The notes beneath the pieces were generated by a model. The model made no database searches. It was not told the DNA's origin and saw nothing but the letters and a program-made list of their open reading frames with translations. The position numbers and the translations under genes are program-made. 64,000 bases of DNA from an uncultured Gammaproteobacteria bacterium (GTDB lineage Bacteria; Patescibacteriota; Microgenomatia; Levybacterales; GWA1-39-11), in assembly GCA_964504535.1 (NCBI GenBank), contig CAZDED010000002.1, positions 82,673-146,672 on the forward strand, written 5' to 3'. Position 1 is the first letter of the stretch. Each line of letters starts with the position of its first letter. Below are positions 42,160 through 63,032 of this stretch, piece by piece.

Positions 42160-43224
42160 ATGAACAAGAGCAAGATATTAATCACGGGTGGAGCAGGGTT
42201 TGTAGGAACAAACCTCGTTAGTTTTTTACTGGGGAAAAAGGAATATGAAATAGTTGTTTTCGATAAATTGGATCATCATTCAGACGAAGAACAAGCAAAA
42301 AAAATTACATACGTTAAAGGCAACATTATTAATAAGTCTGATGTAGAAAAATTATTTGCTCAACATGCACCGTTTGAGGGGGTATATCATTTGGCTGGCG
42401 AGATGCCAAACAAACTTGCGGATGCAAAATTAATGATGCAGACGAATGTTGATGGAACATCAAATCTCATTTCAGAAGCAGTGAAATATAAAGCAAAGTT
42501 TTTTATATTTGCTTCAAGCAATGTGACTTATGGAATACCAATTGAACTCCCTGTAACGGAAAACACCCAACTTAAGCCTCTTGAGGTATATGGGAAGAGT
42601 AAGGAGGAGGCCGAAAAAGTCCTCCAGAAATACAACGGGAAAATAAATATCCAGATGTTCAGGTGCCCGGTTATAACCGGCGTAGGAAGACTTGGACTGC
42701 AGGCAATTCTGTACGAATTCATATCAGAAGACAAGAAGGTATATGTTCTAGGCGGAGGGAACAATAAATACCAGTTTGTTGACGTAGAGGATGTAGTGCA
42801 GGCAATGACGACAGCAAGCAAGATTAAAGGGTTTGACGTATATGTGATAGGGGCAGACGAAATCTTAACACTGCGTGAGTTATATCAAAAAGTTATTGAA
42901 TTTGCCGGCAGTAAATCAAAAATTGTATCACTCCCCTGGGGACCAGCCCTTTTTGCACTTTCAATTTTAGATAAAGTTAACTTTTCCCCGCTTGGAGTAT
43001 ATCAATACACTATGATGGGAAGATCCATTTACGCGGATACGACGAAAATAAAAAAGAAACTTTCCTGGAAACCTAAAAGAACAAATGCAGACACATTCAT
43101 AGAAAATTATAAATGGTATAAGAAAAATAAAGGAAATTTTGTTGTTATTGGCGGGAGTAAGTCTTCGCCAAATAAAAGTGTTCCAAAGATGGGGATTTTA
43201 AAGATTCTTAAAATGTTTTCATAA
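42160..43224 (+). CDS. NAD-dependent epimerase/dehydratase (SDR) family protein
   Basis: Rossmann fold ILITGGAGFVGTNLV and catalytic YGKSK (YxxxK). 354 aa. Confidence 0.7.
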   Translation: MNKSKILITGGAGFVGTNLVSFLLGKKEYEIVVFDKLDHHSDEEQAKKITYVKGNIINKSDVEKLFAQHAPFEGVYHLAGEMPNKLADAKLMMQTNVDGTSNLISEAVKYKAKFFIFASSNVTYGIPIELPVTENTQLKPLEVYGKSKEEAEKVLQKYNGKINIQMFRCPVITGVGRLGLQAILYEFISEDKKVYVLGGGNNKYQFVDVEDVVQAMTTASKIKGFDVYVIGADEILTLRELYQKVIEFAGSKSKIVSLPWGPALFALSILDKVNFSPLGVYQYTMMGRSIYADTTKIKKKLSWKPKRTNADTFIENYKWYKKNKGNFVVIGGSKSSPNKSVPKMGILKILKMFS

Positions 43225-44884: not shown

Positions 44885-45661
44885 ATGAAAAAACTCTCGG
44901 TTGTTCTTGCAACTTTTAATGAAGAAGAGAATCTAGATAGGTGCTTGAGTGCCGTAAAGGATTTGGCTGATGAGATTGTTATAGTTGATGGGACTTCCAA
45001 AGATAAAACAGTTGAGATTGCCAAGTCATTTAAGGCTAAAGTCTTTGTTACAACCAATCCTCCCAATTTTCACATCAACAAGCAAAAAGCTATTGATCTT
45101 GCAACCGGAGATTGGATATTGCAACTTGATGCCGATGAGGTAGTGTCTAAGGGACTTTGCGAGGAGATAACTGACATTTTAAAAAACGATCCGGTAGAGA
45201 ACGGATACTGGATGCCAAGAAAGAATTATTTTTTAGGGAGATTTCTAATGAAGGGTGGTCAGTACCCTGACTACACGGTCAGACTTTACAGAAATGGAAA
45301 AGGAAAGCTGCCCCAAAAAGATGTACACGAGCAGGCAGTGATTGAAGGAAAAATAGGCTACCTTAAGGAGGCATTACTTCATTATCCCTATAAAGACTTC
45401 AATTTTTACGTTTCTAAATGGATGCGCTACAACCACCTTCTCGCTTCTCAAATACATGACGATTTAAAAAATAAGAATTTTATATTGCGTATTTACTATG
45501 GTTTTGCTTATGTTTTCGCAAAACCGGCGCACTGGATGTTGACTGCATACGGAAGGCATAAAGGGTTTTATGATTCATGGCAAGGTTTTGTATTTGCTAT
45601 AATGTCAGCACTACGTTTTCCAGTCTCTTACATTTTGTACCTACAACATAAGTATGAATGA
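44885..45661 (+). CDS. GT2 glycosyltransferase (KdtX/WaaE-like subfamily)
   Basis: LSVVLATFNEEENL…IVIVDGTSKDKT…QLDADEVV. Confidence 0.65.
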   Translation: MKKLSVVLATFNEEENLDRCLSAVKDLADEIVIVDGTSKDKTVEIAKSFKAKVFVTTNPPNFHINKQKAIDLATGDWILQLDADEVVSKGLCEEITDILKNDPVENGYWMPRKNYFLGRFLMKGGQYPDYTVRLYRNGKGKLPQKDVHEQAVIEGKIGYLKEALLHYPYKDFNFYVSKWMRYNHLLASQIHDDLKNKNFILRIYYGFAYVFAKPAHWMLTAYGRHKGFYDSWQGFVFAIMSALRFPVSYILYLQHKYE

Positions 45662-46631
45662 CAAAACAATTTTAGTAACCGGTGGAGCAGGCTATATTGG
45701 CGGATTTATGGTCAGAAAGCTGGTTGAAAAAGGCTACACTGTTGTTGCAATCGATAACCTTTCACGCAATAGTAGACCGGAATTACCTGAAAGCGTTAAT
45801 TTTGTTGAAGGAAGTATCGGTGACAGAAATAAAATAAAATCGATCTTTGAAAACACCCGAATTGACGGAGTTATCCACTTTGCGGCTTTTATTTCGATGG
45901 CAGAGTCAATGAAGGATCCATTTATCTATTTCGAGGATAATGTATACGATAGCCTTACACTTCTTGAAGAAATGAAAAACCATGATGTGAAAAATATTAT
46001 TTTTTCTTCAACCGCAGGGGTATACGGCAATCCAACCGTTCTTCCAATTCCCGAAGACCATCCCAAGAATCCTACAAACCCATACGGGCAAAGCAAATTG
46101 ATGGTTGAACAAATCTTGTCGTGGTACCAAAAAATATTTGGTATATCATACACAGCTCTTCGCTATTTTAACGCGTGTGGAGCATCATTAGATGGTGAGC
46201 ACGGAGAAAGACACAGTCCGGAAACACATATAATTCCACGGGCTATGCAAGCCTTGCTTGGTAATGAGCCGTTTGAGCTTTTTGGGAGAGATTACCAGAC
46301 ACCTGATGGCACCTGTGTACGTGATTATATTCATGTTTTGGATTTAGTTGAGGCACATGTTTTGGCTTTAGAAAAGATCTTTCAAAATCCTGGGGGAAAC
46401 ATATTTAATGTAGGTACTGGTAAAGGCCTTTCAAATAGTGAAATTCTTAAGACGATTGAAGAAGTGACCGGAAGGAAAATGAATATTATTGATAAGGATC
46501 GAAGACCTGGAGATGCAAATGAACTTGTTGCAGATGTTACAAAAATTACAAATGAACTTGGATTTTCACCTCAACACTCAGACATTCGAACGATTGTTGA
46601 ATCAGCTTGGAAATTCCATAGTAAGCAATAG
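45654..46631 (+). CDS. galE: UDP-glucose/UDP-GlcNAc 4-epimerase
   Basis: ILVTGGAGYIGGFMV, FSSTAGVYG, YGQSKLMVE and NACGAS are the GalE hallmarks. 325 aa. Confidence 0.8.
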   Translation: MNDKTILVTGGAGYIGGFMVRKLVEKGYTVVAIDNLSRNSRPELPESVNFVEGSIGDRNKIKSIFENTRIDGVIHFAAFISMAESMKDPFIYFEDNVYDSLTLLEEMKNHDVKNIIFSSTAGVYGNPTVLPIPEDHPKNPTNPYGQSKLMVEQILSWYQKIFGISYTALRYFNACGASLDGEHGERHSPETHIIPRAMQALLGNEPFELFGRDYQTPDGTCVRDYIHVLDLVEAHVLALEKIFQNPGGNIFNVGTGKGLSNSEILKTIEEVTGRKMNIIDKDRRPGDANELVADVTKITNELGFSPQHSDIRTIVESAWKFHSKQ

Positions 46632-46667: not shown

Positions 46668-47729
46668 ATGCGTATAGCATTAGACGTTGGACCTATTGAT
46701 TCAAAAAGCACAAGCAGTCACAAGGTACGCGGAGTTGGGAAATACATAACTCTTCTTAAAGACAATCTTCGCAAATACGATCACACAAACACGTACATTT
46801 TTTCATCAAATCCTTCAAATGAGAAAGATGTGGATTTAATCCATTACCCATACTTTGATCCGTTTTTCATCACCCTTCCATTGATTAAAAAAACTAAGAG
46901 CATAGTTACCGTGCATGACGTTATTCCGCTGGCACACAAAAGGCAGTTTCCGGTGGGTTTGAGAGGGGAGATCAAGTGGAAACTGAATAAAATGAGAATC
47001 CGTGGAGTTGATGGAATAATAACAGACTCGTTTGCTTCGAAAGATGCAATCAATAAAATAACTGGGATTTCAAACAAAAAAATATTCCCTGTTTATTTGT
47101 CAGTTGACCAAGAGTTTAGAAAATTGGAAGATGGAAAATGGAAAGCAGAGCTAATAAAAAAGTACAATCTTCCAGAATCATTTATTCTATATGTAGGGGA
47201 CGTAACATGGAATAAAAACCTACCAAATATCGTAAAGGCTACAAAAGAGGTAGGGGTAAGCTTGGTTATGGTGGGAAAAGCGGTTGGAGAGGATTTGTTT
47301 GATTTTAAAAGCCCATGGAATGCGTCTAGGAAAATAGTTTTGGAAGAAACCTACCAAAATCCATTATTCATAAAAGCTGGATTCGTTCCTACAGAAGATC
47401 TTGTGGAAATGTATAATCTAGCCCGCGCTTTAGTAATGCCTTCATTTGATGAAGGGTTTGGGTTGCCTGTTCTTGAGGCGATGAGCTCTGGATGTCCCGT
47501 TATAACTTCTAATTGTGGAAGCCTTCCTGAAGTAGCAGGAGAAGCCGCTGTTTATGTTGACCCTGAGGATCCGAAATCAATTGCCACTGCAATTAAAGAA
47601 GTTGTTGAGAGTAGCGAGTTGAGAAAAAACCTAAGTAGTAAGGGAATGTCCCAAGCAGATAAATTTTCTATTGAAAAAATGATGAAAGATACGATTTCTG
47701 TCTACCAATCTTTTTCGGATGAAAAGTAA
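46668..47729 (+). CDS. GT4 glycosyltransferase
   Basis: [31 protein letters not shown] (E-x7-E). Confidence 0.75.
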
Positions 47730-48978
47730 AATTTTAGAAGTTTTAAGACACCCCCTAATATCTGGTTCGTTCCTGCTTATTTCTGGAGGAATTTTAGCAA
47801 ACCTGTTTAGTTTTATATTTAATTTTTTTATGAGCAGGAACCTTCGGGTTGAGGATTATGGTACATTCGTAAGCTTGGTTTCGATAATAACGCTACTATC
47901 TATTCCGGCAGGTGCCCTTGCTCCAACAATAGTTACCCTTGCAGGCAATTTCTTTGCAGAAAAAAATCTCGGCATGGTGCATACCTTATATATTAAGATC
48001 ATAAAAATACTTGCCGTAATTTCATTATTTATTTTTATCCTTTTTACCGTATTTGCCGGTCAAGTATCTGCATTTTTCAATATAAAAGACGCAATCCTTA
48101 TGCCGTTAACTGCTGTAGCAATCATGTTTTCATATATATTTACAATCAATCTCTCATTTTTCCAAGCACGTTTATCATTTAAATTGCTTCCCTCTTTAAG
48201 TGTGGCTTCTTCATTCACAAAATTAGTATTTGGAATTATACTCGTGCTTACTGGATTTGGATTGGGTGGAGCAATAAGCTCTTATCTACTGTCATACATT
48301 ATCCCTATATTAATAGGATCCATTTTCCTACGATCAGTTCTTTTTCATAAATCCGATAAAAAGACACATATTACTTTTAAAGAATTGATCAATTTTGGTA
48401 TTCCCTCAGTTGTTATCATATTTTGTTTGAATTCCTTTATTAACACGGACATTCTTCTTGTTAAGCATTTGTTCTCTGAAAAAGATGCTGGGTTTTATGC
48501 AGGTCTTTCACTTGTAGGAAGAGTGGTTTTTTACATAACAGCCCCTGTTACAACAGTTATGTTCCCAATTATTATCAATAAATATAAAAGTAGTCAGCCA
48601 TATAAAAATATTCTCTATGGGGCTCTTGGTATTACGGGTGCTATTTCTATACTTGTAACTGCATTTTATTTTCTGTTTCCTAAGTTCACGATTCTTTTTT
48701 TCTTAAAGAAAACAGAATACCTATTCGTAGCTAACAATCTCGGTATGTTTGGAATATTTATTACGTTATATTCGTTAATGTCAGTCCTTGTGTATTATTT
48801 CTTGTCGGTAAAGCAAACAAAAATATTATATCTTCTTGTTGCGGGTGTTATTTCGCAGGCAGTTTTGATCTATCTTTTCCACGCAAATTTTTATGAAATT
48901 ATAACTATCTCATCACTTATCAGTTTCGTAGTTCTTATCGGTCTTGTCATTTATTATAAAATCCTCTCCGTTAAATAA
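47719..48978 (+). CDS. Wzx-type oligosaccharide flippase (MOP superfamily)
   Basis: 419 aa, ~12 TM helices. GSFLLISGGILANLFSFIFNFFMSRNL…YGTFVSLVS. Confidence 0.65.
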   Translation: MKSKILEVLRHPLISGSFLLISGGILANLFSFIFNFFMSRNLRVEDYGTFVSLVSIITLLSIPAGALAPTIVTLAGNFFAEKNLGMVHTLYIKIIKILAVISLFIFILFTVFAGQVSAFFNIKDAILMPLTAVAIMFSYIFTINLSFFQARLSFKLLPSLSVASSFTKLVFGIILVLTGFGLGGAISSYLLSYIIPILIGSIFLRSVLFHKSDKKTHITFKELINFGIPSVVIIFCLNSFINTDILLVKHLFSEKDAGFYAGLSLVGRVVFYITAPVTTVMFPIIINKYKSSQPYKNILYGALGITGAISILVTAFYFLFPKFTILFFLKKTEYLFVANNLGMFGIFITLYSLMSVLVYYFLSVKQTKILYLLVAGVISQAVLIYLFHANFYEIITISSLISFVVLIGLVIYYKILSVK

Positions 48979-49038
48979 TTACCTTTCAGTTTGGCATGGA
49001 AAATAGTAACCGTTTGGGTTAGAATAAGCCAAGTAAAA

Positions 49039-49875
49039 ATGAAATCCAAAAATCCTCAAGTGATCTCCTTAATTATTCCTGCTTACAAACAAGAAAAGAC
49101 AATTTATAAAGACATAACTAATTTAAAAAAAAGTTTGGATGACCTTAAGCAGCCGTATGAAATAATTGTTGTCATTGATGGAGTACTGGACAAGACGTAT
49201 CAGCAATTAAGAAAAATCAAAACAAAAAAGCTACGAGTCTTTAAATTTGATCAAAATCAGGGTAAAGGATCTGCTATAAAATTCGGAGTAGAAAATGCGA
49301 AAGGAGATATTATCGGTTTTATTGATGCTGGAATGGATATAGACCCAACCGGAATTGCTATGTTGATCAATCACATGCTTTGGTATGATGCTGATATTAT
49401 TGTCGGATCAAAATTGCATCCGGTGTCTCAAGTAAACTATCCCAGAGAACGAAAGATTTTGTCATGGGGTTATAGAACATTTACAAGATTACTGTTCGGT
49501 TTTAAAGTAAGAGACACTCAGGCTGGAATTAAATTTTACAGACGGAGAGTGGCACGTGATGTATTCCCCAGACTTCTGGTTAAAAAGTTTGCTTTTGACG
49601 TTGAGATATTGGCTTTATCATATGCTCTTGGTTATACGAGAATTTATGAAGCCCCGATTAAATTAAAATTTAGAGGAGTAAATTCCATTACATCTACAAA
49701 TCTTTGGAAAATTATTTTTCTTATGCTGTGGGATACGGCTGCGATATTTTATAGAGTTCGAATAATTAAGTTTTACAAACGCAGTAACCGGAAAAATTGG
49801 GAAGTGGAGAAGAGCTCAGTTAAAAAAATTTTACGCAAAAAACGTGTAGCCAAAATTGGTAAAATTAAAAAATGA
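49039..49875 (+). CDS. GT2 polyprenyl-phosphate glycosyltransferase (DPM1/GtrB-like)
   Basis: ISLIIPAYKQEKTI…IIVVIDGVLDKT…DAGMDID…DTQAGIKFY. The track's ORF begins at 48991; ATG 49039 (MKSKNPQV) was chosen. Confidence 0.7.
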   Translation: MKSKNPQVISLIIPAYKQEKTIYKDITNLKKSLDDLKQPYEIIVVIDGVLDKTYQQLRKIKTKKLRVFKFDQNQGKGSAIKFGVENAKGDIIGFIDAGMDIDPTGIAMLINHMLWYDADIIVGSKLHPVSQVNYPRERKILSWGYRTFTRLLFGFKVRDTQAGIKFYRRRVARDVFPRLLVKKFAFDVEILALSYALGYTRIYEAPIKLKFRGVNSITSTNLWKIIFLMLWDTAAIFYRVRIIKFYKRSNRKNWEVEKSSVKKILRKKRVAKIGKIKK

Positions 49876-50990
49876 AAGTTTTAGTCTTGAATTGGCGCGA
49901 TCCAAAACATCCCCTTGCCGGAGGGGCAGAGATTTCTTTATTGCACCACGTAACATACTGGAAAGAGAAGGGGTATGATGTTACATGGTTTGCTTCTGGT
50001 TTTGATGAAGCAAAGGCACAAGACAAAATTGATGGGATAAAGATTGTGAGAGCAGGAAGTCATTTTACAGTGTCTCTGTATTTCTTTGCTAAATGGTTAC
50101 GGGGTGATTTTAGAGATACCGACATTATTGTTGACTGTTTTCATTTTTTTCCATTTTTTACGCCGCTTTATATAAAGGATAAGCCAATAATTGCGTTGAT
50201 CAATGAAATTGCCGGCAACGTGTGGTTTGACAATCTCATGTATCCCTTGGCATTTATTGGTTTTAAAATTGAGCCCTACGTTATTCGTCTTTATAGAAAA
50301 ATTAATTTTATAACTGGATCTAAATCAGCCGCAGAGGATCTCCAAAGCGTTGGTATAAAAAAGCAAAAAATTGCTGTCATAAATCATGGTTTTAATCCTT
50401 TAATAGTTACAAAAAAATGGCCAAAAGAAAAAAATAAGACTGTACTTTTTCTTGGACGACTTGCAAAAGACAAGGGGATTGAGGACGCCCTTCTTATGTT
50501 GGAGCTTTTGATCCGAGATGACAATACAATACAGCTTTGGGTAGTGGGTAAATTTGAGAGTAAAAATTACGAGAAAAGATTAAAAAAATTAATAAATGAA
50601 TTCAAGGTAAAAAAGAACTGCACATTTTTTGGCTACGTTGATGAGGAGAAAAAAGCGGAGCTTCTGCAGCGGGCATGGTTGATGGCCCATCCGTCTGCCC
50701 GTGAAGGGTGGGGACTTAATGTTATTGAAGCGAATTCAGTCGGCACACCCGTAGTAGGTTATAACGTTCAGGGTCTTCGTGATTCAATTATAAACAACAA
50801 GACAGGTCTTTTAGTCGAGCCAGATGCCATAAGTCTTGCAGATGGAGTTGAAAAGGTGTTGGAAGACAAAAAATTACTAAAGAATTTTTCTATCGAGGCA
50901 AAAAAGTGGTCAAATACTTTCAGTTGGGAAAAATCCGGTCTTGAAAGTTTTGAGTTTATAAATGCAGTATATGCGAAGTTTAAAAAATAG
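49872..50990 (+). CDS. GT4 glycosyltransferase
   Basis: REGWGLNVIEANSVGTPVVGYNVQGLRDSI (E-x7-E). Confidence 0.75.
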   Translation: MKVLVLNWRDPKHPLAGGAEISLLHHVTYWKEKGYDVTWFASGFDEAKAQDKIDGIKIVRAGSHFTVSLYFFAKWLRGDFRDTDIIVDCFHFFPFFTPLYIKDKPIIALINEIAGNVWFDNLMYPLAFIGFKIEPYVIRLYRKINFITGSKSAAEDLQSVGIKKQKIAVINHGFNPLIVTKKWPKEKNKTVLFLGRLAKDKGIEDALLMLELLIRDDNTIQLWVVGKFESKNYEKRLKKLINEFKVKKNCTFFGYVDEEKKAELLQRAWLMAHPSAREGWGLNVIEANSVGTPVVGYNVQGLRDSIINNKTGLLVEPDAISLADGVEKVLEDKKLLKNFSIEAKKWSNTFSWEKSGLESFEFINAVYAKFKK

Positions 50991-51029
50991 CCAAATTTAC
51001 AATAATTACTGATATAATTTGAAAATCTT

Positions 51030-52187
51030 ATGAAAAAATATATTCATTTTGCACAACCACTTTTCGGAAGTGAAGAGAAAAAAGAGGTAATAAAAGCGAT
51101 GGATTCGGGTTGGGTAACATTGGGTCCAGGAACCCGTGAATTTGAAGAGCAATTCGCAAAATATACGGGTGCTAAATATGCAGTTGGTCTCAGCTCCTGT
51201 ACGGCTGCTCTTCACCTAGCTCTCATCGCAGCAGGAGTTGGTAGGGGAGATGAGGTAATAACCACTATTTTTACATTTGCAGCATCTATCAACCCCGTTC
51301 TTATTCTTGGTGGAAAACCTGTACTTGTTGATATTGATGAAAAAACTATGAATATTGATGAGAAGTTGATTGAGGCAAAAATAACAAAAAAAACCAAGGT
51401 TATTATGCCTATGCACTATGGTGGATACCCCTGCAATATGGATGCAATTAAAAAAATCGCGAAAAAACACAAATTGATCATAATCGAAGATGCGGCAACG
51501 GCAATTGGGACATCCTACAAGGATAAGAAGGTGGGAAATATCGGGGATATGACCTGTTTTTCTTTCCATCCCATTAAGAATATGTCCACAGGCGATGGTG
51601 GAATGGTGACCACTAACAATAAATTATTTGCAGAAAGAATTATGCTTTTAAGACTTCACGGGATGAGTAAAGAAGCATGGAAGAGGCATACTGCTGCCGG
51701 CTCATGGAAGTATGATATTGTTGAGCCTGGTTTTAAATACAATATGACTGACATTCAGGCTGCTCTTGGGAGAGTACAGCTTAAAAGATTGGATGGATTT
51801 ATAAAAATTAGAAAACAGTACGCGAAGATCTTTGATAGTGAGTTGTCGAAAATACCTGAAATAACTGTTCCTATTCATTCTAAGGATTCTGGTACAGCCT
51901 ACAATTTATATACAATAAGAATTGACACCAAAAATTTAACGGTAACTAGAGATGAAATAGTTGAATTACTAAAGCAAGAACAGATAGGGGTTAGTGTGTA
52001 TTACATCCCACTTTACGAATTTAGTTACTTTCAAAAGCACTTAAAACTTAAAAGTTCAGATTATCCACACGCAAGCGCTGTATATCAGAACATGATGTCT
52101 CTTCCTCTTTATCCCAAGATGACTCTGAAGGATGTTAACAGGGTGATAAACACGCTTTCAAAAATTATTATAAAACACCGCAAATGA
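51030..52187 (+). CDS. DegT/DnrJ/EryC1/StrS-family PLP-dependent sugar aminotransferase (WecE/ArnB/PglE-like)
   Basis: FGSEEKKEVIKAMDSGWVTLGP…SSCTAALHLAL. PLP-lysine region SFHPIKNMSTGDGGMV. 385 aa. Confidence 0.8.
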   Translation: MKKYIHFAQPLFGSEEKKEVIKAMDSGWVTLGPGTREFEEQFAKYTGAKYAVGLSSCTAALHLALIAAGVGRGDEVITTIFTFAASINPVLILGGKPVLVDIDEKTMNIDEKLIEAKITKKTKVIMPMHYGGYPCNMDAIKKIAKKHKLIIIEDAATAIGTSYKDKKVGNIGDMTCFSFHPIKNMSTGDGGMVTTNNKLFAERIMLLRLHGMSKEAWKRHTAAGSWKYDIVEPGFKYNMTDIQAALGRVQLKRLDGFIKIRKQYAKIFDSELSKIPEITVPIHSKDSGTAYNLYTIRIDTKNLTVTRDEIVELLKQEQIGVSVYYIPLYEFSYFQKHLKLKSSDYPHASAVYQNMMSLPLYPKMTLKDVNRVINTLSKIIIKHRK

Positions 52188-52900
52188 ATCCAAAATTCTC
52201 CTGGAAGATTGATACATTCGATTCTGATATCTTAGGTTTTTCTTGTGCAAAGATACAGTGTTTGAGTAGCGGAGGTTTGGATATTTCAGAACTAATAACT
52301 GACTTGGTCAAAAAGAAAGTTAAGTACGCGGTCATCAGAATCCCAGGAAGTGACTATCAAACAGCGCAACTTCTTGAGCGTAATTCCTTTCGGATTGTCG
52401 ATAGTTTAGTTGAAATGAGTTTAAATCTAAGTGGTGCAATCATAGAGTCGGTTGAAAACGTTAGGGTAGCCAAAGTTAGTGATAGTGAAGACATCGAAAA
52501 GCTTTCTTCAGATTCGTTTCAGGACACTCGCTTTTTTCATGACGATGGGATTTCGAAAACTTCCGCAAAAAAGATTTATTCTGAGTGGGCAAGAAATTCA
52601 TTATTGGGAAAAGCCGCAGACAAAGTTATTGTTTGGGAGCAGAATGGCACCATAGAGGGGTTTGCTACTATCCAAAAAAGTGGGCACATACCTCTTATTG
52701 CGGTTGCAAAAAGTGCGCAAGGCAAAGGAGTTGGTAAGGCACTTTGCAGGGCTTCTATAAATGTTTGCAAAGAATTTGGAGCGACTAACGCTGCCATTGA
52801 AACACAAACCAATAATATACCTGCCATGCGTGCATACATTTCTGCTGGGTTAAAAATAATAAATTCTTATTTCACCTTTTCGTGGCATGCTAAATCTTAA
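52184..52900 (+). CDS. GNAT-family N-acetyltransferase, WecD/RffC-like (amino-sugar N-acylation)
   Basis: IPLIAVAKSAQGKGVGKALC…ETQTNNIPAMRAYISAGLKI. Translationally coupled (ATGA) to the upstream aminotransferase. Confidence 0.6.
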   Translation: MNPKFSWKIDTFDSDILGFSCAKIQCLSSGGLDISELITDLVKKKVKYAVIRIPGSDYQTAQLLERNSFRIVDSLVEMSLNLSGAIIESVENVRVAKVSDSEDIEKLSSDSFQDTRFFHDDGISKTSAKKIYSEWARNSLLGKAADKVIVWEQNGTIEGFATIQKSGHIPLIAVAKSAQGKGVGKALCRASINVCKEFGATNAAIETQTNNIPAMRAYISAGLKIINSYFTFSWHAKS

Positions 52901-54380
52901 TATAATTCTAATAAGTGTAATCGTACCTGTTATAGCCTTTTTCTTTGAGTCATACCCGCGTTTTTTTAACAGAAAATTTGGGGTAGATATATGGACTCAC
53001 CTTTTATATCTGAAGGAGTATCACAAGCAAAAAGGGGTACCAAAAGTTATTGATAAAGGATTTCTTGTACCCGGTGAATATGATTATCCACCGGTATTTA
53101 TCACAATTCTTTCAAAATTTCCAATTAAATTAGTTGAGAAGTATGAATTTTTCTTCTCCCCCTTTTTTGATTCTCTCCATTTGATTCTAATGTTTTTTAT
53201 TGCATATCATCTGTCGGGAGATTTTATTGTAGCCATCCTAACACAGATCTTATACCTACTGACACCAATAATAGTCCTTGAGAATTCAAGTGCCACTCCA
53301 CGGTCACTGGGCTACACATTGTTTACAATATTTATCTTTTCACTTTTTATGTTTGCACAAACAAATCTCGTTCTTTTTTTTGTAATCTCGCTCATTGCCG
53401 GGGTATTTATATTTTTATCTCATAGATTCACCGCTCAAGGTGCATTATTTTTTGTTCTTTTCTTCTCAATTAACGAAAATAACAGCATCTATGTCGTTTC
53501 TTATCTTGTTTCATTTTCACTCGCTCTCATATTTACAAACGGATTGTATTTGAGAGTACTTAGGGGACATATTGGTAATTTAAAATTTTGGTACAACCAG
53601 ATAGATTATCGTTTTTCGCACCAAATTCTTGGAAACTATAAAAAACATAAAACGCAAGACTTTGTTTTTAAGCTTTACAATCAATTTTTAAAATTTCCCC
53701 CCTTTGTTCTTGCAATAACCAATCCATGGACGTTGCCTGTCGTATTCTACCTTTGGAACATGCACCAACTTACTCCATTATTGCGACAAACCCTTGAATT
53801 AGTTATTCTTTCATATATTATTTCTCTCCTTGTTATATGGGTTCCTAAGTTGAGGTTTTTAGGTGAAGGACAGCGTTATCTCGAGTTAACTGCTTTTCCT
53901 ACTGCATTTCTGTCAGCGAAACTTCTAATTTATATGTTGGGCACTAGTTACTCAAATTTGTTTGTCGTTATTTATCTAGGAGCTGCTGTGCTTGCTCTTG
54001 TTACAATAATTGTGATCCAAAGGAAAGCAATAATTAAAGACACTCTGCGAACACTTACTCCTGAGATGGAATCAATGTTTGGTTATTTAAAATCATTAAA
54101 GAACAAGCCGCATCTTTTATGTATTCCTCATCAAATAACAACAAACACAATTTATCATACTGGGTGCCCTGTTTTTGTAAATGCTGATTATAGGAATATT
54201 GAAAAAATCTCAGAGATATATCCATTTCTAAAAATACCTGTCAGTAAGGCTTTGAAAAAATATTCGCTTGATGCAATTCTTCTAAATGAAAAATATGTAT
54301 CAGTAAAAGACTTGAAAATAAAAAATTACAAAGAAGTCAAAAGATTTGGAACGTTTGTTCTTCTAAAGCTTAATAAGTAA
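52887..54380 (+). CDS. Family E polytopic membrane protein (uncharacterised; 497 aa)
   Basis: YPRFFNRKFGVDIWTHLL…TPRSLGY…GEGQRYLE…CIPHQITT. Paralogue of the convergent gene 54363..55850. Confidence 0.5.
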   Translation: MLNLNIILISVIVPVIAFFFESYPRFFNRKFGVDIWTHLLYLKEYHKQKGVPKVIDKGFLVPGEYDYPPVFITILSKFPIKLVEKYEFFFSPFFDSLHLILMFFIAYHLSGDFIVAILTQILYLLTPIIVLENSSATPRSLGYTLFTIFIFSLFMFAQTNLVLFFVISLIAGVFIFLSHRFTAQGALFFVLFFSINENNSIYVVSYLVSFSLALIFTNGLYLRVLRGHIGNLKFWYNQIDYRFSHQILGNYKKHKTQDFVFKLYNQFLKFPPFVLAITNPWTLPVVFYLWNMHQLTPLLRQTLELVILSYIISLLVIWVPKLRFLGEGQRYLELTAFPTAFLSAKLLIYMLGTSYSNLFVVIYLGAAVLALVTIIVIQRKAIIKDTLRTLTPEMESMFGYLKSLKNKPHLLCIPHQITTNTIYHTGCPVFVNADYRNIEKISEIYPFLKIPVSKALKKYSLDAILLNEKYVSVKDLKIKNYKEVKRFGTFVLLKLNK

Positions 54381-55850
54381 CATACCATTTAAGTTGTAAA
54401 CTACTTTTGCTTTTTTAAGTTTCAGTTCTTCAAGTTTTGCAAACGACTCTTTCAATATAAGGTAATCGAGCTTGTATTTAGACTTTAATTCCTCAATTGA
54501 CAGTTTTAGTACTGGATAAAACTGCATTATCTCCATAAGACCCTTGTTGTCTGCATTAACGAGTATTTCAGCCTTTGTGTGGTATACAGTCATTGTTGTT
54601 ATTTGGTGGGGAATACAAATTATTCGAGGTTTTCCGGGGATTTTATTGATGAATGTAAATAAATCCAGCAATTCGGTTGTTAACGACCGATTTTTGTCTT
54701 TTATTATTCCTTTGATTTGGATGAACAATATCATGCCAAGATTTCCCAAAGCAACAACTGCAAATCCAATAATTGCAATTATTCCGTATGAATCATAGAA
54801 ATGGAATAGCAATACGGAGCTCAGTATTGATACGGGAACTGTCGCCATTTCCAAGTATCGTTGCCCCTCACCAATTGGAACAAGAATCTTAACCCTCAAA
54901 ATTATTGCTCCCAGCGCATAAAAGAAAATTACCCACAGTGACATGAAATAAAACATACTGTTTTGAATCTCAAGACTTGTTCCGGTCAGGAAGTAATAAA
55001 AATAGATAAATGCAGAAATAACCCAAACGTCTGTCATAAGCAAGAAGATGGGCGAAAATTCCGAAAGTAAAAAATATATTGTCCCAACCCAATCCAATTT
55101 CTTCCTTGAGGTCAGCCCATGTAGCTGGTGAGAAAATCGATATCTATAATTTTTTGTCCAAAAGTATATGTTGTATAGATGTCCGGTAGCGACCCGTAAG
55201 TAGTACCCCTTGGTTAGAATAGTTGCTAGGCTAAATCCTATGACTGGTACTGCGAGAAATATTAAAGAACCCGTAACTGTAGCAAAAAAGAAACATATAA
55301 ATATGAATGATTGAAGGGCAAATCTATGTGTAAGAAAAAGGATAGTTGTAAAAGTAACTGACAGCAGGATATAAATTAGCTCTGAAGAATTGTAAAACAA
55401 TAAAAGGGGGTAGAAGGAAAGAGTGAACATCAGGTATCCAAGCGACCGAGGAGTAAGGTAACTATTTTCCACAGGAATCATAGGAATCAATGTATATACA
55501 GCCTGCGAAACAAACGCTATCTGAACTGAGTGAGTAAGACTGAATGCAATGTAAAACAACAATATATTCTGAAGGGCATCAAAAAAAGGCGACACAAATC
55601 CTTGATATTTTAGTAGAGCTTTCTTTGGAAAAAAGGAAAAAAGCCACGGAAATAAAATTGGATAATCGAATTTCCCATCAATTATAAATCCTCTTTGTAT
55701 TTTCCCAGGTATTTTGTGACTGGATTTTTTGACATGATCAATCTCGAGAAGTCGTGTCCAAACATCGACGCCAAAATATCTGTTAAAAAATCTTGGGTAG
55801 GTTTGCAATATATAACTCAGAACAGGAATAATAAAAGCCGTGACAATCAT
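54363..55850 (-). CDS. Family E polytopic membrane protein (inverted paralogue of 52887..54380)
   Basis: Same motifs (YPRFFNRYFGVDVWTRLL, TPRSLGY, GEGQRYLE, CIPHQITT). 3' ends overlap by 18 nt. The track's ORF begins at a TTG at 55856; ATG 55850 was chosen. Confidence 0.5.
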   Translation of the reverse strand: MIVTAFIIPVLSYILQTYPRFFNRYFGVDVWTRLLEIDHVKKSSHKIPGKIQRGFIIDGKFDYPILFPWLFSFFPKKALLKYQGFVSPFFDALQNILLFYIAFSLTHSVQIAFVSQAVYTLIPMIPVENSYLTPRSLGYLMFTLSFYPLLLFYNSSELIYILLSVTFTTILFLTHRFALQSFIFICFFFATVTGSLIFLAVPVIGFSLATILTKGYYLRVATGHLYNIYFWTKNYRYRFSHQLHGLTSRKKLDWVGTIYFLLSEFSPIFLLMTDVWVISAFIYFYYFLTGTSLEIQNSMFYFMSLWVIFFYALGAIILRVKILVPIGEGQRYLEMATVPVSILSSVLLFHFYDSYGIIAIIGFAVVALGNLGMILFIQIKGIIKDKNRSLTTELLDLFTFINKIPGKPRIICIPHQITTMTVYHTKAEILVNADNKGLMEIMQFYPVLKLSIEELKSKYKLDYLILKESFAKLEELKLKKAKVVYNLNGMLLIKL

Positions 55851-55910
55851 TGACAATAACCGATAATAGCATATTTACAATCTAAATAAAAATGAGTAAT
55901 ATCTATTATC

Positions 55911-56693
55911 ATGAAATTGACAGGTCGCAAATATCCATATTATTTCGAGGGAGAAATAAAGCCCAATAATTCAAAAATTGTAGAATCGGGCGTCAAAGAA
56001 ATCATAAAAGCTTCAAAAAAATATCTGGGAAAAGATCCTGAAGAGATATCAGTTCTGGATGTAGGGTCCGGGCGTGGTGATTTTTCTATTCAAATGGCAA
56101 AGGTTTTCAAAAGTGTGGTTGCTATAGAGCCATATAAAGATGCATATGAATATGCAATGAAAAACTCTCCAAAGCAACTAAAAAATATCATATTTAAGAA
56201 TTCGTCAATAGAAATGTTTGAATCAAAGAATAAATACGATCTGATAGTAGCATTAACAATATTTGAGCATCTTAAAAATCAAAAAAAAGCTTTCAATCAG
56301 ATGTTCTCGTTATTAAAAGAGGGCGGTATCATATATATCACTGCGCCAAATAAGTATTGGCCTGTCGAGCAGCATTATGGTTTGCCCTTCCTTGCATGGT
56401 TGCCACTTCCACTGGCCAATTTCTATCTTAAATTATTTAGGGGAGTTTCTTCATACGAAGATAGTTCTTACTCTAGAGGATATTACTGGACAAGAAAATT
56501 TTTCGACAAATACCCATGCACATATGAATTTATTTTGCCATTTAACACAAAAGGTGCTTACATTGGTTACGGAAAGAAGGGGTTTTATTCAGTGATAAAG
56601 GACTTTGGAATAAAGCTAATTTCAAGTAACCCGAATTTTTGGGCAATTTCTAAAGGCTTTATTATTGTCGTTAAGAAAACATCGAAAAAGTAG
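55911..56693 (+). CDS. Class I SAM-dependent methyltransferase
   Basis: Motif I VLDVGSGRGDFS, post-I acidic residue, motif II DLIVAL. 260 aa. Confidence 0.65.
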   Translation: MKLTGRKYPYYFEGEIKPNNSKIVESGVKEIIKASKKYLGKDPEEISVLDVGSGRGDFSIQMAKVFKSVVAIEPYKDAYEYAMKNSPKQLKNIIFKNSSIEMFESKNKYDLIVALTIFEHLKNQKKAFNQMFSLLKEGGIIYITAPNKYWPVEQHYGLPFLAWLPLPLANFYLKLFRGVSSYEDSSYSRGYYWTRKFFDKYPCTYEFILPFNTKGAYIGYGKKGFYSVIKDFGIKLISSNPNFWAISKGFIIVVKKTSKK

Positions 56694-56696
56694 ATA

Positions 56697-57656
56697 TTAA
56701 TAAGCGTCTTTAACCCACCCGTGTTTTTTTACTAGTTTTAAAATTTCCTTTATTCCGTCTTCGATATTATATTTCGGATCAAATCCTAAAAATTTTCTTG
56801 CTTTAGAAATGTCTAGTGCGCCTCTGAATACCTGCTGTACCGAAGGCTCTCTCACTTCATAAGTGAATTTTGGAAAATATTCTTTTAGTACTTCAGCAAA
56901 ATCACTTGCTGCTCTTGGCTCACCTCTGGAAATATTAAATGTTTGATACATTGCGCTTGGTGACTCTACGCACAATACAAATCCGTCAGTAACATCTTCA
57001 ATATATGAAAGATCTAGGGTTTCACCCTGTACAACCCATGCTGGTTTTTTCGTGAGTGCAGCATCTAAAAGTAATTGAGTCACTCTGTTTGCGGCATCCG
57101 CGTATCCATAGACTGATGTGGGGCGAACGATGACCCACTCTTTTTTTGATAATTTTACGAAGTATTCACCAGCTGCCTTTGTTGCCCCATATGAGTTGAT
57201 GGGGTTTAGAATTACATCCTCAGGTTGCGGATTTAGAGTAAAATGACCATAAGTCATACTTGAAGATGTATAAACGATTCTTTTGCAGGATGGAGACTTT
57301 TCAAATTCCTCCAAAACATTTAGTGTTCCATACATATTGACAGGAATCATCTGAGCTTCATACTGTGGAAGTGGTCTTGCCATAGGTAGACCTGCAAGAT
57401 GGACAACAACTTCCGGGTTAAATTTTTCAAAAGCTTGAGAAAGAGCCTCTTTGTCTCTAACATCTGCATCAAAAAATTTCTTTGGGGTATGAGGGAATAA
57501 TAGCTTTCTGTGCTTGACTGCAGCCTTCGAGTATTTCGGTTTATCGATAAAACTTAGTGTTGAATCGTAAACAGCAACATCGTGTTTATTTTTGATGAGT
57601 TTCTCAACCAAACTTGTTCCAATGAAGCCATTTCCACCAGTCACTAAAATTTTCAT
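56697..57656 (-). CDS. NAD-dependent epimerase/dehydratase (SDR) family protein (candidate NDP-sugar 4,6-dehydratase, 4-epimerase or decarboxylase)
   Basis: MKILVTGGNGFIGTSLV and YGATKAAGE (YxxxK). Start set at ATG 57656, because the track's start at 57707 would overlap the divergent gene at 57701. Confidence 0.7.
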   Translation of the reverse strand: MKILVTGGNGFIGTSLVEKLIKNKHDVAVYDSTLSFIDKPKYSKAAVKHRKLLFPHTPKKFFDADVRDKEALSQAFEKFNPEVVVHLAGLPMARPLPQYEAQMIPVNMYGTLNVLEEFEKSPSCKRIVYTSSSMTYGHFTLNPQPEDVILNPINSYGATKAAGEYFVKLSKKEWVIVRPTSVYGYADAANRVTQLLLDAALTKKPAWVVQGETLDLSYIEDVTDGFVLCVESPSAMYQTFNISRGEPRAASDFAEVLKEYFPKFTYEVREPSVQQVFRGALDISKARKFLGFDPKYNIEDGIKEILKLVKKHGWVKDAY

Positions 57657-57700
57657 ACTTGAGAGTGTAATCCTTTCATGTACAATAATCAATATTATAT

Positions 57701-58402
57701 ATGGCAAATTCTCACATGAAGTTTATTAAAAAGAGAGACAAAAATCCCTTAGTCCCTGGGCACTACTTTCTCTTTAACTGGGTAAAACCATTTATAAAAA
57801 AGAAAACAAAAATTTTGGATATCGGTTGTTGGACAGGACCCCTTGAAATACTTTTTGAAAAAACTGAAGCTGCCGTTACCGGTATTGATATTGAAGAGGG
57901 ACCTTTAAAATACGCTTCTAAAAGATTTCCACAATATAGGTTTAAAAATGTCTCAATTATAGAAAATCTACCCTTTAAAAATGGTGAGTTTAATATTGTA
58001 CTTTTTTTCATGGTTATTGAACACATTCCTCAGGGGAGTGAATTGATAGCTCTTCGTAATATAAACAGGGTAATGAAAAAGGGTGGGAAATTATGCATGA
58101 ATACTATGAATTCAAATGTACTATCAAACCTTCTTGATCCGGCTTACTTCTTTGGACACAGACATTATTCTGAAAAACATCTTCGTGATTTACTATCTCT
58201 TGCAGGATTTAAAGTCGAAAAAATAACATTCAACGCTGGATTTTTTACAACAGCCTACATAGTCACGTTATATTTTTTCAAACATGTATTAAGAAGAGCA
58301 GAGCCAAGAGGAATATTTGATAAGCTGATGGAGCTTGACTACAAAAATCGTGGATTTGCAGAAATAGATATTCAAGCGGTTAAGGTTGCCAATATAAATT
58401 AA
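57701..58402 (+). CDS. Class I SAM-dependent methyltransferase
   Basis: Motif I ILDIGCWTGPLE…KKGGKLCMNT. 233 aa. Confidence 0.6.
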   Translation: MANSHMKFIKKRDKNPLVPGHYFLFNWVKPFIKKKTKILDIGCWTGPLEILFEKTEAAVTGIDIEEGPLKYASKRFPQYRFKNVSIIENLPFKNGEFNIVLFFMVIEHIPQGSELIALRNINRVMKKGGKLCMNTMNSNVLSNLLDPAYFFGHRHYSEKHLRDLLSLAGFKVEKITFNAGFFTTAYIVTLYFFKHVLRRAEPRGIFDKLMELDYKNRGFAEIDIQAVKVANIN

Positions 58403-58403
58403 A

Positions 58404-59447
58404 ATGAAGGCATTTGAAAAAGTTTCAATAATTATTGTCAATTGGAATGGTGCTCAGCATCTTAAAAAATGTTTGCCAACACTTGAAAAAATTAATTATC
58501 CAAATTTTGAAATAATATTTGTTGATAATGCATCTCAAGACGAGTCAATAGATCTTATAAAAACATTTGCAAAGAGGATGCAACCGCGAAATGTAAAAAT
58601 TAAGACGGTTGTTAACAAAAAGAATTTAGGATTTGCAGGGGGGAATAATGCAGGTCTTAAATCGGTTACTGGTAAATATATCCTGCTTCTTAATAATGAC
58701 ACTACTGTTACGAAAAACTTCATCAAGGAACTTGTTGGAGTAATTGAAAAAAATCCGTCCGTCGATTGCGTTCAATCAAAGATACTATCCATGAACTATC
58801 CTGAAAAACTTGATTCTGTAGGGGCTTATCTCACAAACACTGGTTTTCTATACCACTACGGTTATTTCCAAAAAAATAAATTGTCATATGACTCAACCCG
58901 TGATCTCTATACAGCCAAAGGCGCATGCATGATGGTGAAGAAAGAAATTGTAGATAAAATAGGATTGTTCGATCCTGACTTTTTTGCTTACTTTGAAGAA
59001 TCTGATTTTTGTCACCGTATATGGTTGTCCGGAGGAAGAGTGATGTATGCTCCAAAATCAGTTATTTATCACAAGGTTGGTGGAACTTCGAATTCAATGA
59101 ATAATGCATTCATTCAATTCCACTCATTTAAAAATCGCATCAATTCTTACTTGAAGAATTTGGGAACCTTAGAACTTATAAAAATATTACCGCTGCATCT
59201 CTTGTTATGTGAGCTTGCGGCTGTAAGCTTTGTTCCAAAAGGTCGGGTGGATTTATTTATTGCTATCAATAAAGCAATTTATTGGAATGCATTAAATATT
59301 AAAAAAACTCTAAAAAAAAGAAAAAAGATACAGCATGTTTTGCGTACTGTGCCGGATTCAAAATTCATGAAAAATATAAAGAGAAGTCCGGGAGCCCGTT
59401 ATTACTATTATTTATTTGCAAAAAGCCTCGTGGGGTATAGGGAATGA
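58404..59447 (+). CDS. GT2 glycosyltransferase (rhamnosyltransferase-like)
   Basis: VSIIIVNWNGAQHL…IIFVDNASQDES…LLNNDTTV…EESDFCHR. Confidence 0.7.
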   Translation: MKAFEKVSIIIVNWNGAQHLKKCLPTLEKINYPNFEIIFVDNASQDESIDLIKTFAKRMQPRNVKIKTVVNKKNLGFAGGNNAGLKSVTGKYILLLNNDTTVTKNFIKELVGVIEKNPSVDCVQSKILSMNYPEKLDSVGAYLTNTGFLYHYGYFQKNKLSYDSTRDLYTAKGACMMVKKEIVDKIGLFDPDFFAYFEESDFCHRIWLSGGRVMYAPKSVIYHKVGGTSNSMNNAFIQFHSFKNRINSYLKNLGTLELIKILPLHLLLCELAAVSFVPKGRVDLFIAINKAIYWNALNIKKTLKKRKKIQHVLRTVPDSKFMKNIKRSPGARYYYYLFAKSLVGYRE

Positions 59448-61628: not shown

Positions 61629-63032
61629 ATGCTTTTTACAGATCACTTTTTTATCCTTTACTTCTTCCCAATTTTCTTTATTTTCTATTATCTATTTCGA
61701 AGATCACTCATACTTTCAGACGTCATCCTCATAATATTTAGTCTTCTGTTTTATGCATCATTTGGAATAAATAATCTTCCAATTCTCATTATTCCCCTAT
61801 TTATAGATTATTTCGCCGGGATATATCTCCAAAAACAAAGATCAAAAAGAAAAAGAAAAATTGTACTGACTATCTTGATTGTGGGGAACTTGCTGCTACT
61901 TGGATATTACAAATATGCGCTTTTTACTATAGATAGCATTATATTGCTTCATAAAGATAATTTTTTGACTACCTTGACGTTCTATAAGAACATCATTGTC
62001 CCGGTTGGTATATCTTTTATTACATTTCAACGGATCAGTTATGAAGTAGACATTTATAGAAGAAAGATAAAGGCCTGCAAAAATCTTTTACAGTATGCCT
62101 CATATGCACTTCTCTTTCCGCATCTCATCTCAGGACCAATTGTGAGATATTCATTTATTCAAAAACAGCTAAAAAAACGAAAGCTGACATCTCTACTGAT
62201 GTTTGATGGGATGAAGTATTTTGTCATAGGACTTTGTCTCAAGTTATTGATAGCAGACAAACTTTTTATCGTAGAAAATGCCCTTTCAACGAATCTTAAG
62301 AACATCCATTCTCTTGAGGCAATTTGTCTTTTGTTCTATTTCTCATTTAGAATTTATCTGGATTTTTGCGGATACTCGCTTATAGCGATTGGACTCGCAA
62401 AGCTTATGGGATTTGAATTTCCACATAACTTTAACGCGCCTTACCAGGCTATAAATATAACTGACTTTTGGAGACGGTGGAATATCACACTTTCCGGTTG
62501 GTTGAGGGACTATCTGTATATTCCCTTGGGGGGAAATAGAAAAGGGAAGATCAGAACTTATGTGAATTTAATAATAACCATGCTTTTGGGTGGACTATGG
62601 CATGGAGCTAGCTGGAATTTTGTTCTATGGGGACTTTTACATGGAAGTTATTTAGCAATTGAACGGTTGTTAAATGACAAGAAAATTACTATACCTTTAC
62701 CACTAATTATAAAAAGATATGCAACTTTCTTGCTAGTGACAGTTACTTGGCTAACATTCCTTTTCAAAAGCCCTGGAGATATTGCCATGGAGGTGAAGAA
62801 AATCTTAGAATTGAATTTTACGCTCCCTGATCTAAGTCTTAAGTTATTGATGCAAGAGAGTATTATTGTTTTGCTCTTTGCAGTAATTTGGTCATTCTTT
62901 TTAAAAGAAGAATATATAGAAAAAATAAAACCAAATCTTTTATCTTCAATTTCACTTGTTATTCTTTTATTGGTATGTATTTATAGTGCGCTATGGAGTG
63001 CTGGTGTTCCTTTTATTTATTTTCAATTCTAG
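61629..63032 (+). CDS. MBOAT-family membrane-bound O-acyltransferase (AlgI/DltB-like)
   Basis: WRRWNITLSGWLRDYLYIPLGGNRKG and GLWHGASWNFVLWGLLHG (conserved His). 467 aa, polytopic. Confidence 0.8.
   Translation: MLFTDHFFILYFFPIFFIFYYLFRRSLILSDVILIIFSLLFYASFGINNLPILIIPLFIDYFAGIYLQKQRSKRKRKIVLTILIVGNLLLLGYYKYALFTIDSIILLHKDNFLTTLTFYKNIIVPVGISFITFQRISYEVDIYRRKIKACKNLLQYASYALLFPHLISGPIVRYSFIQKQLKKRKLTSLLMFDGMKYFVIGLCLKLLIADKLFIVENALSTNLKNIHSLEAICLLFYFSFRIYLDFCGYSLIAIGLAKLMGFEFPHNFNAPYQAINITDFWRRWNITLSGWLRDYLYIPLGGNRKGKIRTYVNLIITMLLGGLWHGASWNFVLWGLLHGSYLAIERLLNDKKITIPLPLIIKRYATFLLVTVTWLTFLFKSPGDIAMEVKKILELNFTLPDLSLKLLMQESIIVLLFAVIWSFFLKEEYIEKIKPNLLSSISLVILLLVCIYSALWSAGVPFIYFQF

Follow-up and report, generated by a model that had tools for sequence, protein, structure and literature searches.

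What is made by the genes at positions 51,030–58,402 of a 64,000-nucleotide stretch of contig CAZDED010000002.1 (assembly GCA_964504535.1, positions 82,673 to 146,672; hereafter the window), and what is done with the product? An earlier note on this DNA read the interval as an amino-sugar tailoring block comprising a DegT-family aminotransferase, a GCN5-related N-acetyltransferase (GNAT), two S-adenosylmethionine (SAM)-dependent methyltransferases, and short-chain dehydrogenase/reductase (SDR) enzymes. The open reading frames (ORFs) and their family assignments are all borne out by Pfam and NCBIfam searches, but midway through the interval two further genes, which encode membrane glycosyltransferases of the GT-C fold (M497a and M497b), had been overlooked. 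From gene content and order we favor the view that the interval represents a single allele of an exchangeable sugar-tailoring cassette within a conserved glycan-assembly island, and consider this somewhat better than an even bet.

Most of 14 related loci share a common gene order: a GT4 glycosyltransferase gene (GT4a), a wzx flippase gene, a GT2 glycosyltransferase gene (GT2e) and a second GT4 gene (GT4b) are followed by a cassette, then by M497a, in some cases a PMT_2 gene, M497b on the opposite strand, a gene similar to that of the methyltransferase MT2, and a further cassette. The proteins of this scaffold are 36–95% identical among the related loci, and several types of cassette are inserted into it. 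One type is the aminotransferase–GNAT pair with or without the methyltransferase MT1 and the SDR enzyme SDR336; a second has PseB-like and RmlD-like genes together with a Gtf3-like glycosyltransferase gene; a third combines an RmlB-like gene with a cytidylyltransferase gene; and L046 has a GFO oxidoreductase, an acetyltransferase whose fold is the left-handed beta-helix (LbH), plus DegT genes. By analogy, a scaffold with exchangeable cassettes would be much like the organization behind O-antigen serotype variation. The named relatives are Levyibacteriota, Daviesbacteria, 'Patescibacteria group', Saccharimonadales and WWE3. Several contigs of metagenome-assembled genomes with close homologues (L012–L017) are labelled Gammaproteobacteria, and these labels look wrong; other homologues are named Levyibacteriota, Daviesbacteria or Patescibacteria.

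The translational coupling proposed for the aminotransferase and GNAT genes is present as an ATGA overlap of stop and start codons (52184–52187), and it recurs. In the nine related loci where the two genes are unfused they are adjacent and in the same order, with an ATGA-type 4-nt overlap in eight, and seven of the 120 best aminotransferase homologues are single polypeptides of ~625 residues with a DegT domain followed by a GNAT domain (two of these were checked in their genomic context). Overlap and fusion together support the proposal that the aminotransferase and the WecD-like GNAT are one functional unit, whose expected product is an N-acetylated sugar nucleotide of the amino-deoxy type. 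The GNAT relatives were collected through the fusion proteins and a genome scan, as a homologue search with the GNAT by itself gave ten matches. L044 and L045 pair the same GNAT family (36–41% identity) with a different aminotransferase, and in the window the GNAT stop codon overlaps the M497a ORF by 14 nt.

The aminotransferase contains the lysine expected to bind pyridoxal phosphate (PLP), within the sequence SFHPIKN, and this residue aligns with the corresponding lysines of ArnB and WecE, to which the protein is 34% (E. coli ArnB) and 33% identical. Among proteins of known structure in the PDB the best bit scores are to ArnB (292), perosamine synthase (243) and Spr1654 (228), the last being a pneumococcal aminotransferase for 2-acetamido-4-amino-2,4,6-trideoxygalactose (AATGal; PMC5936713). 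WecE (179), PseC of H. pylori (169) and PglE of C. jejuni (130) are more distant, and the C-3 aminotransferases QdtB, DesV and WbpE score 168–203 bits. With ArnB, perosamine synthase and Spr1654 on top, the ranking favors a C-4 aminotransferase without naming the sugar or the nucleotide, and the enzyme probably acts at C-4 of a nucleoside diphosphate (NDP)-4-keto sugar. The NCBIfam models give scores below every equivalog cut-off: the PseC model TIGR03588 is the top match (392.5 bits, cut-off 423.5), and the shortfall extends to the ArnB model NF008658 (363.9 bits, cut-off 631) and the WecE models NF008687 and TIGR02379 (275.9 and 234.6 bits, cut-offs 375 and 434.85). Reading a UDP-HexNAc substrate from the PseC match was rejected as an argument, because the PseC model is also the best match of the L044 aminotransferase, whose gene has those of an RmlB-type dehydratase and a cytidylyltransferase for neighbors. 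With each of the aminotransferases that stand in other gene contexts in the related loci, the window enzyme shares ~38% identity.

The GNAT resembles WecD, the known enzyme of this fold for acetylation at the 4-amino position of nucleotide-linked 4-amino-4,6-dideoxyhexose, which has an extra N-terminal domain of ~70 residues (PMC4363471). Among NCBIfam models it matches the WecD model NF008212 best, over positions 9–229 of the 232 in that model, although neither this model (92.8 bits, cut-off 219) nor TIGR02382 (62.8 bits, cut-off 195) reaches its cut-off, and identity to WecD is 20–22%. The predicted structure has both the GNAT domain and the additional N-terminal domain and superposes on WecD with a deviation of 2.0 Å over 215 residues; we call the protein WecD-type and not WecD. 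Of the likeness to WecE/WecD or PglE/PglD that had been suggested for the pair, the part on the GNAT and WecD holds at the level of the fold. The aminotransferase falls outside it: its scores put it nearer to ArnB and to the perosamine and AATGal synthases than to either WecE or PglE.

The enzyme that would supply the keto sugar is a separate matter. Two extended SDR enzymes, SDR336 within the interval and SDR354 upstream of it, had been described as dehydratase/epimerases. The epimerase half of that description agrees with the epimerase/reductase signature of SDR336; the dehydratase half holds for neither enzyme. SDR336 has the motifs TSSSMTYG...YGATK and lacks the TDE/TxE or DK signature of dehydratases, the two proteins score 94.5 (SDR336) and 98.7 bits (SDR354) on the dTDP-glucose dehydratase model TIGR01181 (cut-off 365), and the PseB model gives 36 bits. 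Both were thus ruled out by motif and score as the lacking 4,6-dehydratase, and since neither has a dehydratase signature or score, the step that makes the keto sugar is absent from the block. The best PDB matches of SDR336 are UDP-hexose 4-epimerases, at no more than 88 bits. GalE, named in the earlier note as a neighboring gene, scores well above its model cut-off (Table 1). The earlier note saw no nucleotidyltransferase gene in the window, and the analysis likewise finds none there, with ten of the ORFs assigned by paralogy to GT-C and GT2 families, and none in the flanks of 10 kb upstream (L041) and 10 kb downstream (L005).

The related loci give some indication of where the keto sugar might come from. 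Eleven loci, including the window, have the window-type aminotransferase–GNAT pair and were scanned within 10 kb of it. A PseB/FnlA-type UDP-GlcNAc 4,6-dehydratase is encoded in four (L009, L015, L016 and L018) and an SDR336 orthologue (56–96% identity) in six (the window, L008, L012, L017, L047 and L048); the two never co-occur, and L049 has neither. In L044 and L045 the aminotransferase gene adjoins those of an RmlB-type dehydratase (315 bits on TIGR01181) and of a protein resembling glucose-1-phosphate cytidylyltransferases (253 bits on TIGR02623).

A second DegT paralogue is encoded ~7 kb past the window end, in the downstream flank. DegT-family dehydratases carry a histidine in place of the PLP lysine, and RfbH-type enzymes act on NDP-4-keto-6-deoxyhexoses. 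This paralogue has the histidine, and among the models it matches RfbH best (227 bits, under the cut-off of 423); it looks like an E1/ColD-type NDP-hexulose 3-dehydratase and suggests a 3,6-dideoxyhexose branch. Because RfbH-type enzymes use an NDP-4-keto-6-deoxyhexose, a pool of such a sugar probably exists in the organism.

M497a and M497b are polytopic paralogues with 37.6% identity over their full length and have no match in Pfam or NCBIfam. An AlphaFold model built from 39 homologues is confident (mean predicted local distance difference test score, pLDDT, 90.1) and shows a membrane fold of the GT-C type; the loop that follows the first transmembrane helix (TM1) holds a conserved acidic residue, an aspartate directly behind TM1 that is invariant even among members with as little as 20–35% identity. 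A profile search identified at least 1,290 representative clusters (50% identity) at E ≤0.001, mostly from Patescibacteria with outliers such as Magnetococcus. When 30 diverse members were scanned against Pfam, none had a significant match, and a single weak PMT_2 hit appeared at E 0.001. One distant member, P0388, is a 497-residue hypothetical protein of Magnetococcus sp. PR-3, so that the family is not strictly confined to the candidate phyla radiation (CPR). Profile–profile comparison by hhalign gave a probability of 0.7% each against the PMT_2 paralogues of the window and against a 711-residue protein, providing no sequence-level link to either. To STT3, AglB and PglB, and to other GT-C enzymes such as AftA, PMT, ALG and DPY19, the M497 proteins are ~10% identical, and they have no Pfam match; neither paralogue has an STT3 Pfam domain or the WWDYG motif (or WWD), and at 497 residues both are much shorter. 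From the fold, the aspartate, the lack of Pfam matches and the lack of WWDYG, we regard them as GT-C enzymes of an unnamed sequence family and not canonical oligosaccharyltransferases. Both have orthologues in L008, L009, L012 and L044–L047, and a literature search returned nothing relevant on GT-C enzymes or oligosaccharyltransferases in Patescibacteria/CPR.

The methyltransferases had been taken as part of the amino-sugar tailoring, and the related loci do not agree with this. MT2 homologues (43–67% identity) adjoin M497 genes in L008, L012, L017 and L044–L047 whatever the sugar cassette, those of L044–L046 being quite different; MT1 has orthologues in L008 and L012 (68–92% identity) and none in L047, which keeps the aminotransferase–GNAT pair; and L009 keeps the pair without MT1, MT2 or SDR336. 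With MT2 tracking M497 and the island scaffold, and MT1 dispensable, the methyltransferases cannot be assigned to the acetamido sugar. They are not ribosomal RNA, transfer RNA (tRNA) or quinone enzymes by any curated equivalog cut-off: the best NCBIfam match of MT1 is UbiG (61.1 bits, cut-off 102.95), MT2 is below all cut-offs (CpaM, 52.7 bits against 180), and RNA methyltransferase models give at most 36 bits with either. Our proposal is that the two, as SAM methyltransferases of a generic kind, each modify some part of this glycan.

The remaining scaffold genes flank the block. GT4a has orthologues in L008, L009 and L018 (39–48% identity), and the position of the flippase gene wzx2 is kept in L008, L009, L018 and L044–L049. 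GT2e is a putative member of the polyprenyl-phosphate glycosyltransferase class, with best PDB matches to the Pyrococcus dolichyl-phosphate mannose synthase (DPMS) 5mlz (E 3.6e-12) and then to GtrB (5ekp); it scores under every NCBIfam cut-off, and its C-terminus has a single weak hydrophobic segment (residues 241–259), as against two in ArnC. A GT2e homologue is encoded upstream in 13 of the 14 related loci, L017 being the exception. GT4b lies immediately 5′ of the aminotransferase gene, or of the fused aminotransferase–GNAT gene, in L008, L009, L012, L015, L016, L018 and L047–L049, and GT2f orthologues (55–64% identity) follow MT2 in L008, L017 and L047. GT2e and GT4b are themselves fused into one 626-residue protein in L047 (8083–9963), where the aminotransferase is 78% identical to that of the window; this is a second Rosetta-stone link in the scaffold. 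Two minus-strand genes (M497b and SDR336) are embedded in the otherwise plus-strand operon. The likely true start of SDR336 is Met18 (57656; 319 residues), as indicated by the public gene call and the orthologues; the mechanical ORF of 336 residues starts at TTG, and the Met18 start leaves a 44-bp divergent gap to MT2.

Table 1. Positions of the genes discussed, in window coordinates except where a flank (L005) is given.
Feature	Position	Strand	Remarks
MptA_B-like protein	3982		Island GT-C-like gene
GT87-like protein	29419		Island GT-C-like gene
Polytopic ORFs without family	32367, 40841, 59444		Counted among the ~20 GT-C or GT-C-like genes
SDR354, extended SDR	42160..43224	+	Motifs SSNVTYG...YGKSK; no TDE/TxE or DK
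GalE, UDP-glucose 4-epimerase	45654..46631	+	TIGR01179, 384.4 bits (cut-off 262.3); PDB GalE matches ≤315 bits
GT4a, scaffold GT4 glycosyltransferase	46668..47729	+	PF00534, 99 bits
Wzx2, MOP/Wzx-type flippase of the scaffold	47719..48978	+	PF13440 and PF01943
GT2e, putative polyprenyl-phosphate glycosyltransferase of family GT2 (DPMS/GtrB/ArnC-like)	48991..49875	+	
GT4b, GT4 glycosyltransferase	49872..50990	+	PF00534, 144 bits
DegT-family PLP sugar aminotransferase	51030..52187	+	PF01041, 432.1 bits (gathering cut-off 19.8)
WecD-type two-domain GNAT, predicted N-acetyltransferase for a nucleotide-linked 4-amino sugar	52184..52900	+	PF00583, 47 bits
M497a, GT-C fold membrane glycosyltransferase without Pfam model	52887..54380	+	497 residues, polytopic
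M497b, paralogue of M497a	54363..55856	-	497 residues, polytopic; convergent, 18-nt overlap with M497a end
MT1, class I SAM methyltransferase	55911..56693	+	Methyltransf_23, 73.3 bits (cut-off 27)
SDR336, extended SDR, GalE-like epimerase/reductase type	56697..57707	-	PF01370, 122 bits
MT2, class I SAM methyltransferase	57701..58402	+	Methyltransf_23/25/11, 59.9 bits (cut-off 27)
GT2f, GT2 glycosyltransferase 3′ of MT2	58404..59447	+	PF00535, 92 bits
Second DegT paralogue, RfbH/E1-type	L005:18836-20008		~7 kb past window end; His replaces PLP lysine (SFYVGHH)

These genes can be placed in a pathway, which in outline we think is probably right: the pair makes an acetamido sugar that enters a polyprenyl-linked glycan, and M497 transfers it. 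A dehydratase encoded elsewhere would generate an NDP-4-keto sugar, for which UDP-2-acetamido-2,6-dideoxy-hex-4-ulose and CDP- or dTDP-4-keto-6-deoxyglucose are candidates. The aminotransferase, as its family and catalytic lysine indicate, would aminate this sugar, most likely at C-4, and the coupled WecD-type GNAT, going by its fold, would acetylate the new amine with acetyl-CoA. The product would be a sugar nucleotide of the 4-acetamido-4,6-dideoxyhexose type, used in the cytoplasm by GT2e and GT4b/GT4a to build a polyprenyl-phosphate-linked glycan that Wzx2 would flip, and the linkage and GT-C fold of M497a and M497b point to these as the enzymes that would then transfer the glycan to an acceptor outside the membrane.

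Several observations weigh against this pathway. The aminotransferase reaches no equivalog cut-off, the choice of C-4 over C-3 is drawn solely from the ranking of matches and the WecD-like partner, and the PseC model does not discriminate among substrates, as its top score for the L044 enzyme illustrates. The window and the 10 kb on each side contain no gene for a 4,6-dehydratase, an oxidase-decarboxylase or a nucleotidyltransferase, so the substrate is assumed. Neither a priming phosphoglycosyltransferase nor an acceptor protein was identified, and the association with S-layer or flagellin glycans raised earlier finds no counterpart in an S-layer, flagellin or other acceptor gene.

Three other accounts of the pair have to be weighed. 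The most serious takes SDR336 as the supplier: acting as an NAD-dependent 4-dehydrogenase, it would oxidize a UDP-hexose or UDP-HexNAc without dehydration, and the pair would turn the product into a 4-acetamido-4-deoxy sugar with its 6-hydroxyl still in place, which the methyltransferases could O-methylate. The mutually exclusive occurrence of SDR336 and PseB-like genes beside the pair is the pattern to be expected of two alternative keto-sugar suppliers, keto-releasing GalE-like SDRs exist, and SDR-type threonine dehydrogenases are among the PDB matches of SDR336. However, it matches 4-epimerases best, and in these the keto intermediate is not released; the protein showed no feature specific to dehydrogenases, the complementary pattern may be no more than a sign of alternative cassettes, and L049 has neither gene within 10 kb. 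We consider this route quite unlikely.

We think it very unlikely that the locus follows the Arn pathway (ArnB/A/C/D/T), with the aminotransferase acting as ArnB on a UDP-4-keto-pentose, the GNAT replacing the ArnA formyltransferase in a transient N-acylation, GT2e acting as ArnC to put the sugar on polyprenyl phosphate, and M497 acting as ArnT to move a single amino-pentose to a surface acceptor. An ArnB-like aminotransferase, a predicted N-acylation step, a putative polyprenyl-phosphate GT2 and a GT-C enzyme are indeed found together in one locus, as in that system, but the aminotransferase scores far below the ArnB cut-off at 34% identity, the TSE motif that marks UDP-glucuronate decarboxylases is absent from every SDR of the window, the C-terminal domain of ArnA matches just GalE and SDR354, and those weakly, and neither a UDP-glucose dehydrogenase nor an ArnD-type deacylase is encoded in the window or flanks. 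The same GNAT family is also paired with 6-deoxyhexose enzymes in the relatives. A substrate other than a nucleotide sugar (inositol, an aminoglycoside-like small molecule or an amino acid), with the position in the island incidental, is extremely improbable in our estimation, even though the DegT family includes scyllo-inosose aminotransferases (PDB 7b0d, 223 bits) and GNATs are promiscuous.

Returning to the acetamido-sugar pathway, a bolder version of it can be framed, which we offer as speculation and consider rather unlikely. The M497 pair would found a new GT-C sequence family acting like minimal oligosaccharyltransferases, with en bloc transfer of a short glycan to surface proteins or wall polymers. 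The DPMS-like GT2e would start this glycan on polyprenyl monophosphate, in the manner of archaeal AglJ and in a locus where no phosphoglycosyltransferase is seen; GT4b/GT4a would extend it with the acetamido sugar, and Wzx2 would flip it. If this is true, the swappable cassette would give CPR cells a serotype-like surface variation.

Comparison with known systems yields partial likenesses only. WecE and WecD, which serve dTDP-Fuc4NAc synthesis for enterobacterial common antigen, are likewise a DegT aminotransferase and a two-domain GNAT encoded by adjacent genes; however, the window aminotransferase is not of the WecE clade (159–179 bits, versus 258–292 for ArnB), the gene order is reversed with the aminotransferase first, the pair is often fused in relatives, and RmlA and RmlB are not encoded nearby. 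The PseB/PseC/PseH and PglF/PglE/PglD pathways to UDP-2,4-diacetamido-2,4,6-trideoxyhexoses share the logic of dehydratase, C-4 aminotransferase and N-acetyltransferase, and agree with the PseC top match and with the PseB/FnlA-like dehydratases near the pair in some of the loci. They differ in the acetyltransferase, which is WecD-type in the window, single-domain in PseH and of the LbH fold in PglD (PMC4363471), and the window has no dehydratase, PseG, PseI or PseF. The O-antigen and capsule loci and the three-component glycosylation of Gram-positive bacteria, which consists of a GT2, a flippase and a GT-C enzyme (reviewed in PMC8035078), are similar in having a fixed scaffold, nucleotide-sugar cassettes that vary, and GT-C enzymes alongside a GT2 of likely DPMS/GtrB type. 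The window differs from these in having ~20 GT-C or GT-C-like genes within a single island, its CPR lineage, its unnamed GT-C family, and the lack of a visible priming phosphoglycosyltransferase.

The genes for amino-sugar tailoring add members to well-known families, and their arrangement resembles that of O-antigen, enterobacterial common antigen, Pgl or Pse loci. Of greater note are the unnamed GT-C family within the block, the Rosetta-stone fusions, which recur, and the combination of a scaffold with cassettes in CPR bacteria. Members of the CPR/Patescibacteria have small genomes and depend on hosts, and here such a bacterium spends more than 70 kb on surface glycans, in an architecture that in cultured bacteria underlies serotype diversity and phage or host recognition. 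The aminotransferase–GNAT and GT2–GT4 fusions are unusually direct genomic evidence for enzymes working together, and the M497 pair offers targets for structural and biochemical work on envelope decoration in the CPR.

The surrounding surface-glycan island is a single one of at least 70 kb with nearly all of its genes on one strand. It begins at ~3.2 kb and runs past the window end, its extent being taken as 3210–64000 plus part of the downstream flank, to ~73 kb in window-equivalent coordinates. Its GT-C or GT-C-like genes, ~20 in total, include eight PMT_2, four PTPS_related, three YfhO and the two M497 genes, and there are also ~10 GT2, three GT4 and two Wzx genes. Ten of the ORFs (12179, 13723, 19432, 21089, 23392, 25518, 28691, 30653, 34319 and 37505) were assigned to GT-C or GT2 families by paralogy, without a profile scan. 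The ENA assembly ERZ4216102 carries the island on two contigs, with NODE_4 ending at ~12.2 kb and NODE_112 starting at ~37.4 kb (window positions), and the position of this break among repeated GT-C paralogues suggests that paralogy caused it. A scan for promoters and terminators in 50500–59000 was uninformative, with counts that match the shuffled expectation (31 versus 31.3, and 4 versus 4.7). Rfam and tRNA scans of the window revealed no RNA gene besides a tRNA-Glu(CTC) on the minus strand (1793–1865), just to the left of the first glycosyltransferase gene of the island (3210). Near the other end an MBOAT protein similar to DltB and AlgI (61629–63032) scores 165 bits on the DltB model, under its cut-off, and is followed in the flank by an AlgX-domain protein (L005:11406–12572). 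These two are likely a glycan O-acetylation pair, and after them come a third methyltransferase and a protein of 1,106 residues.

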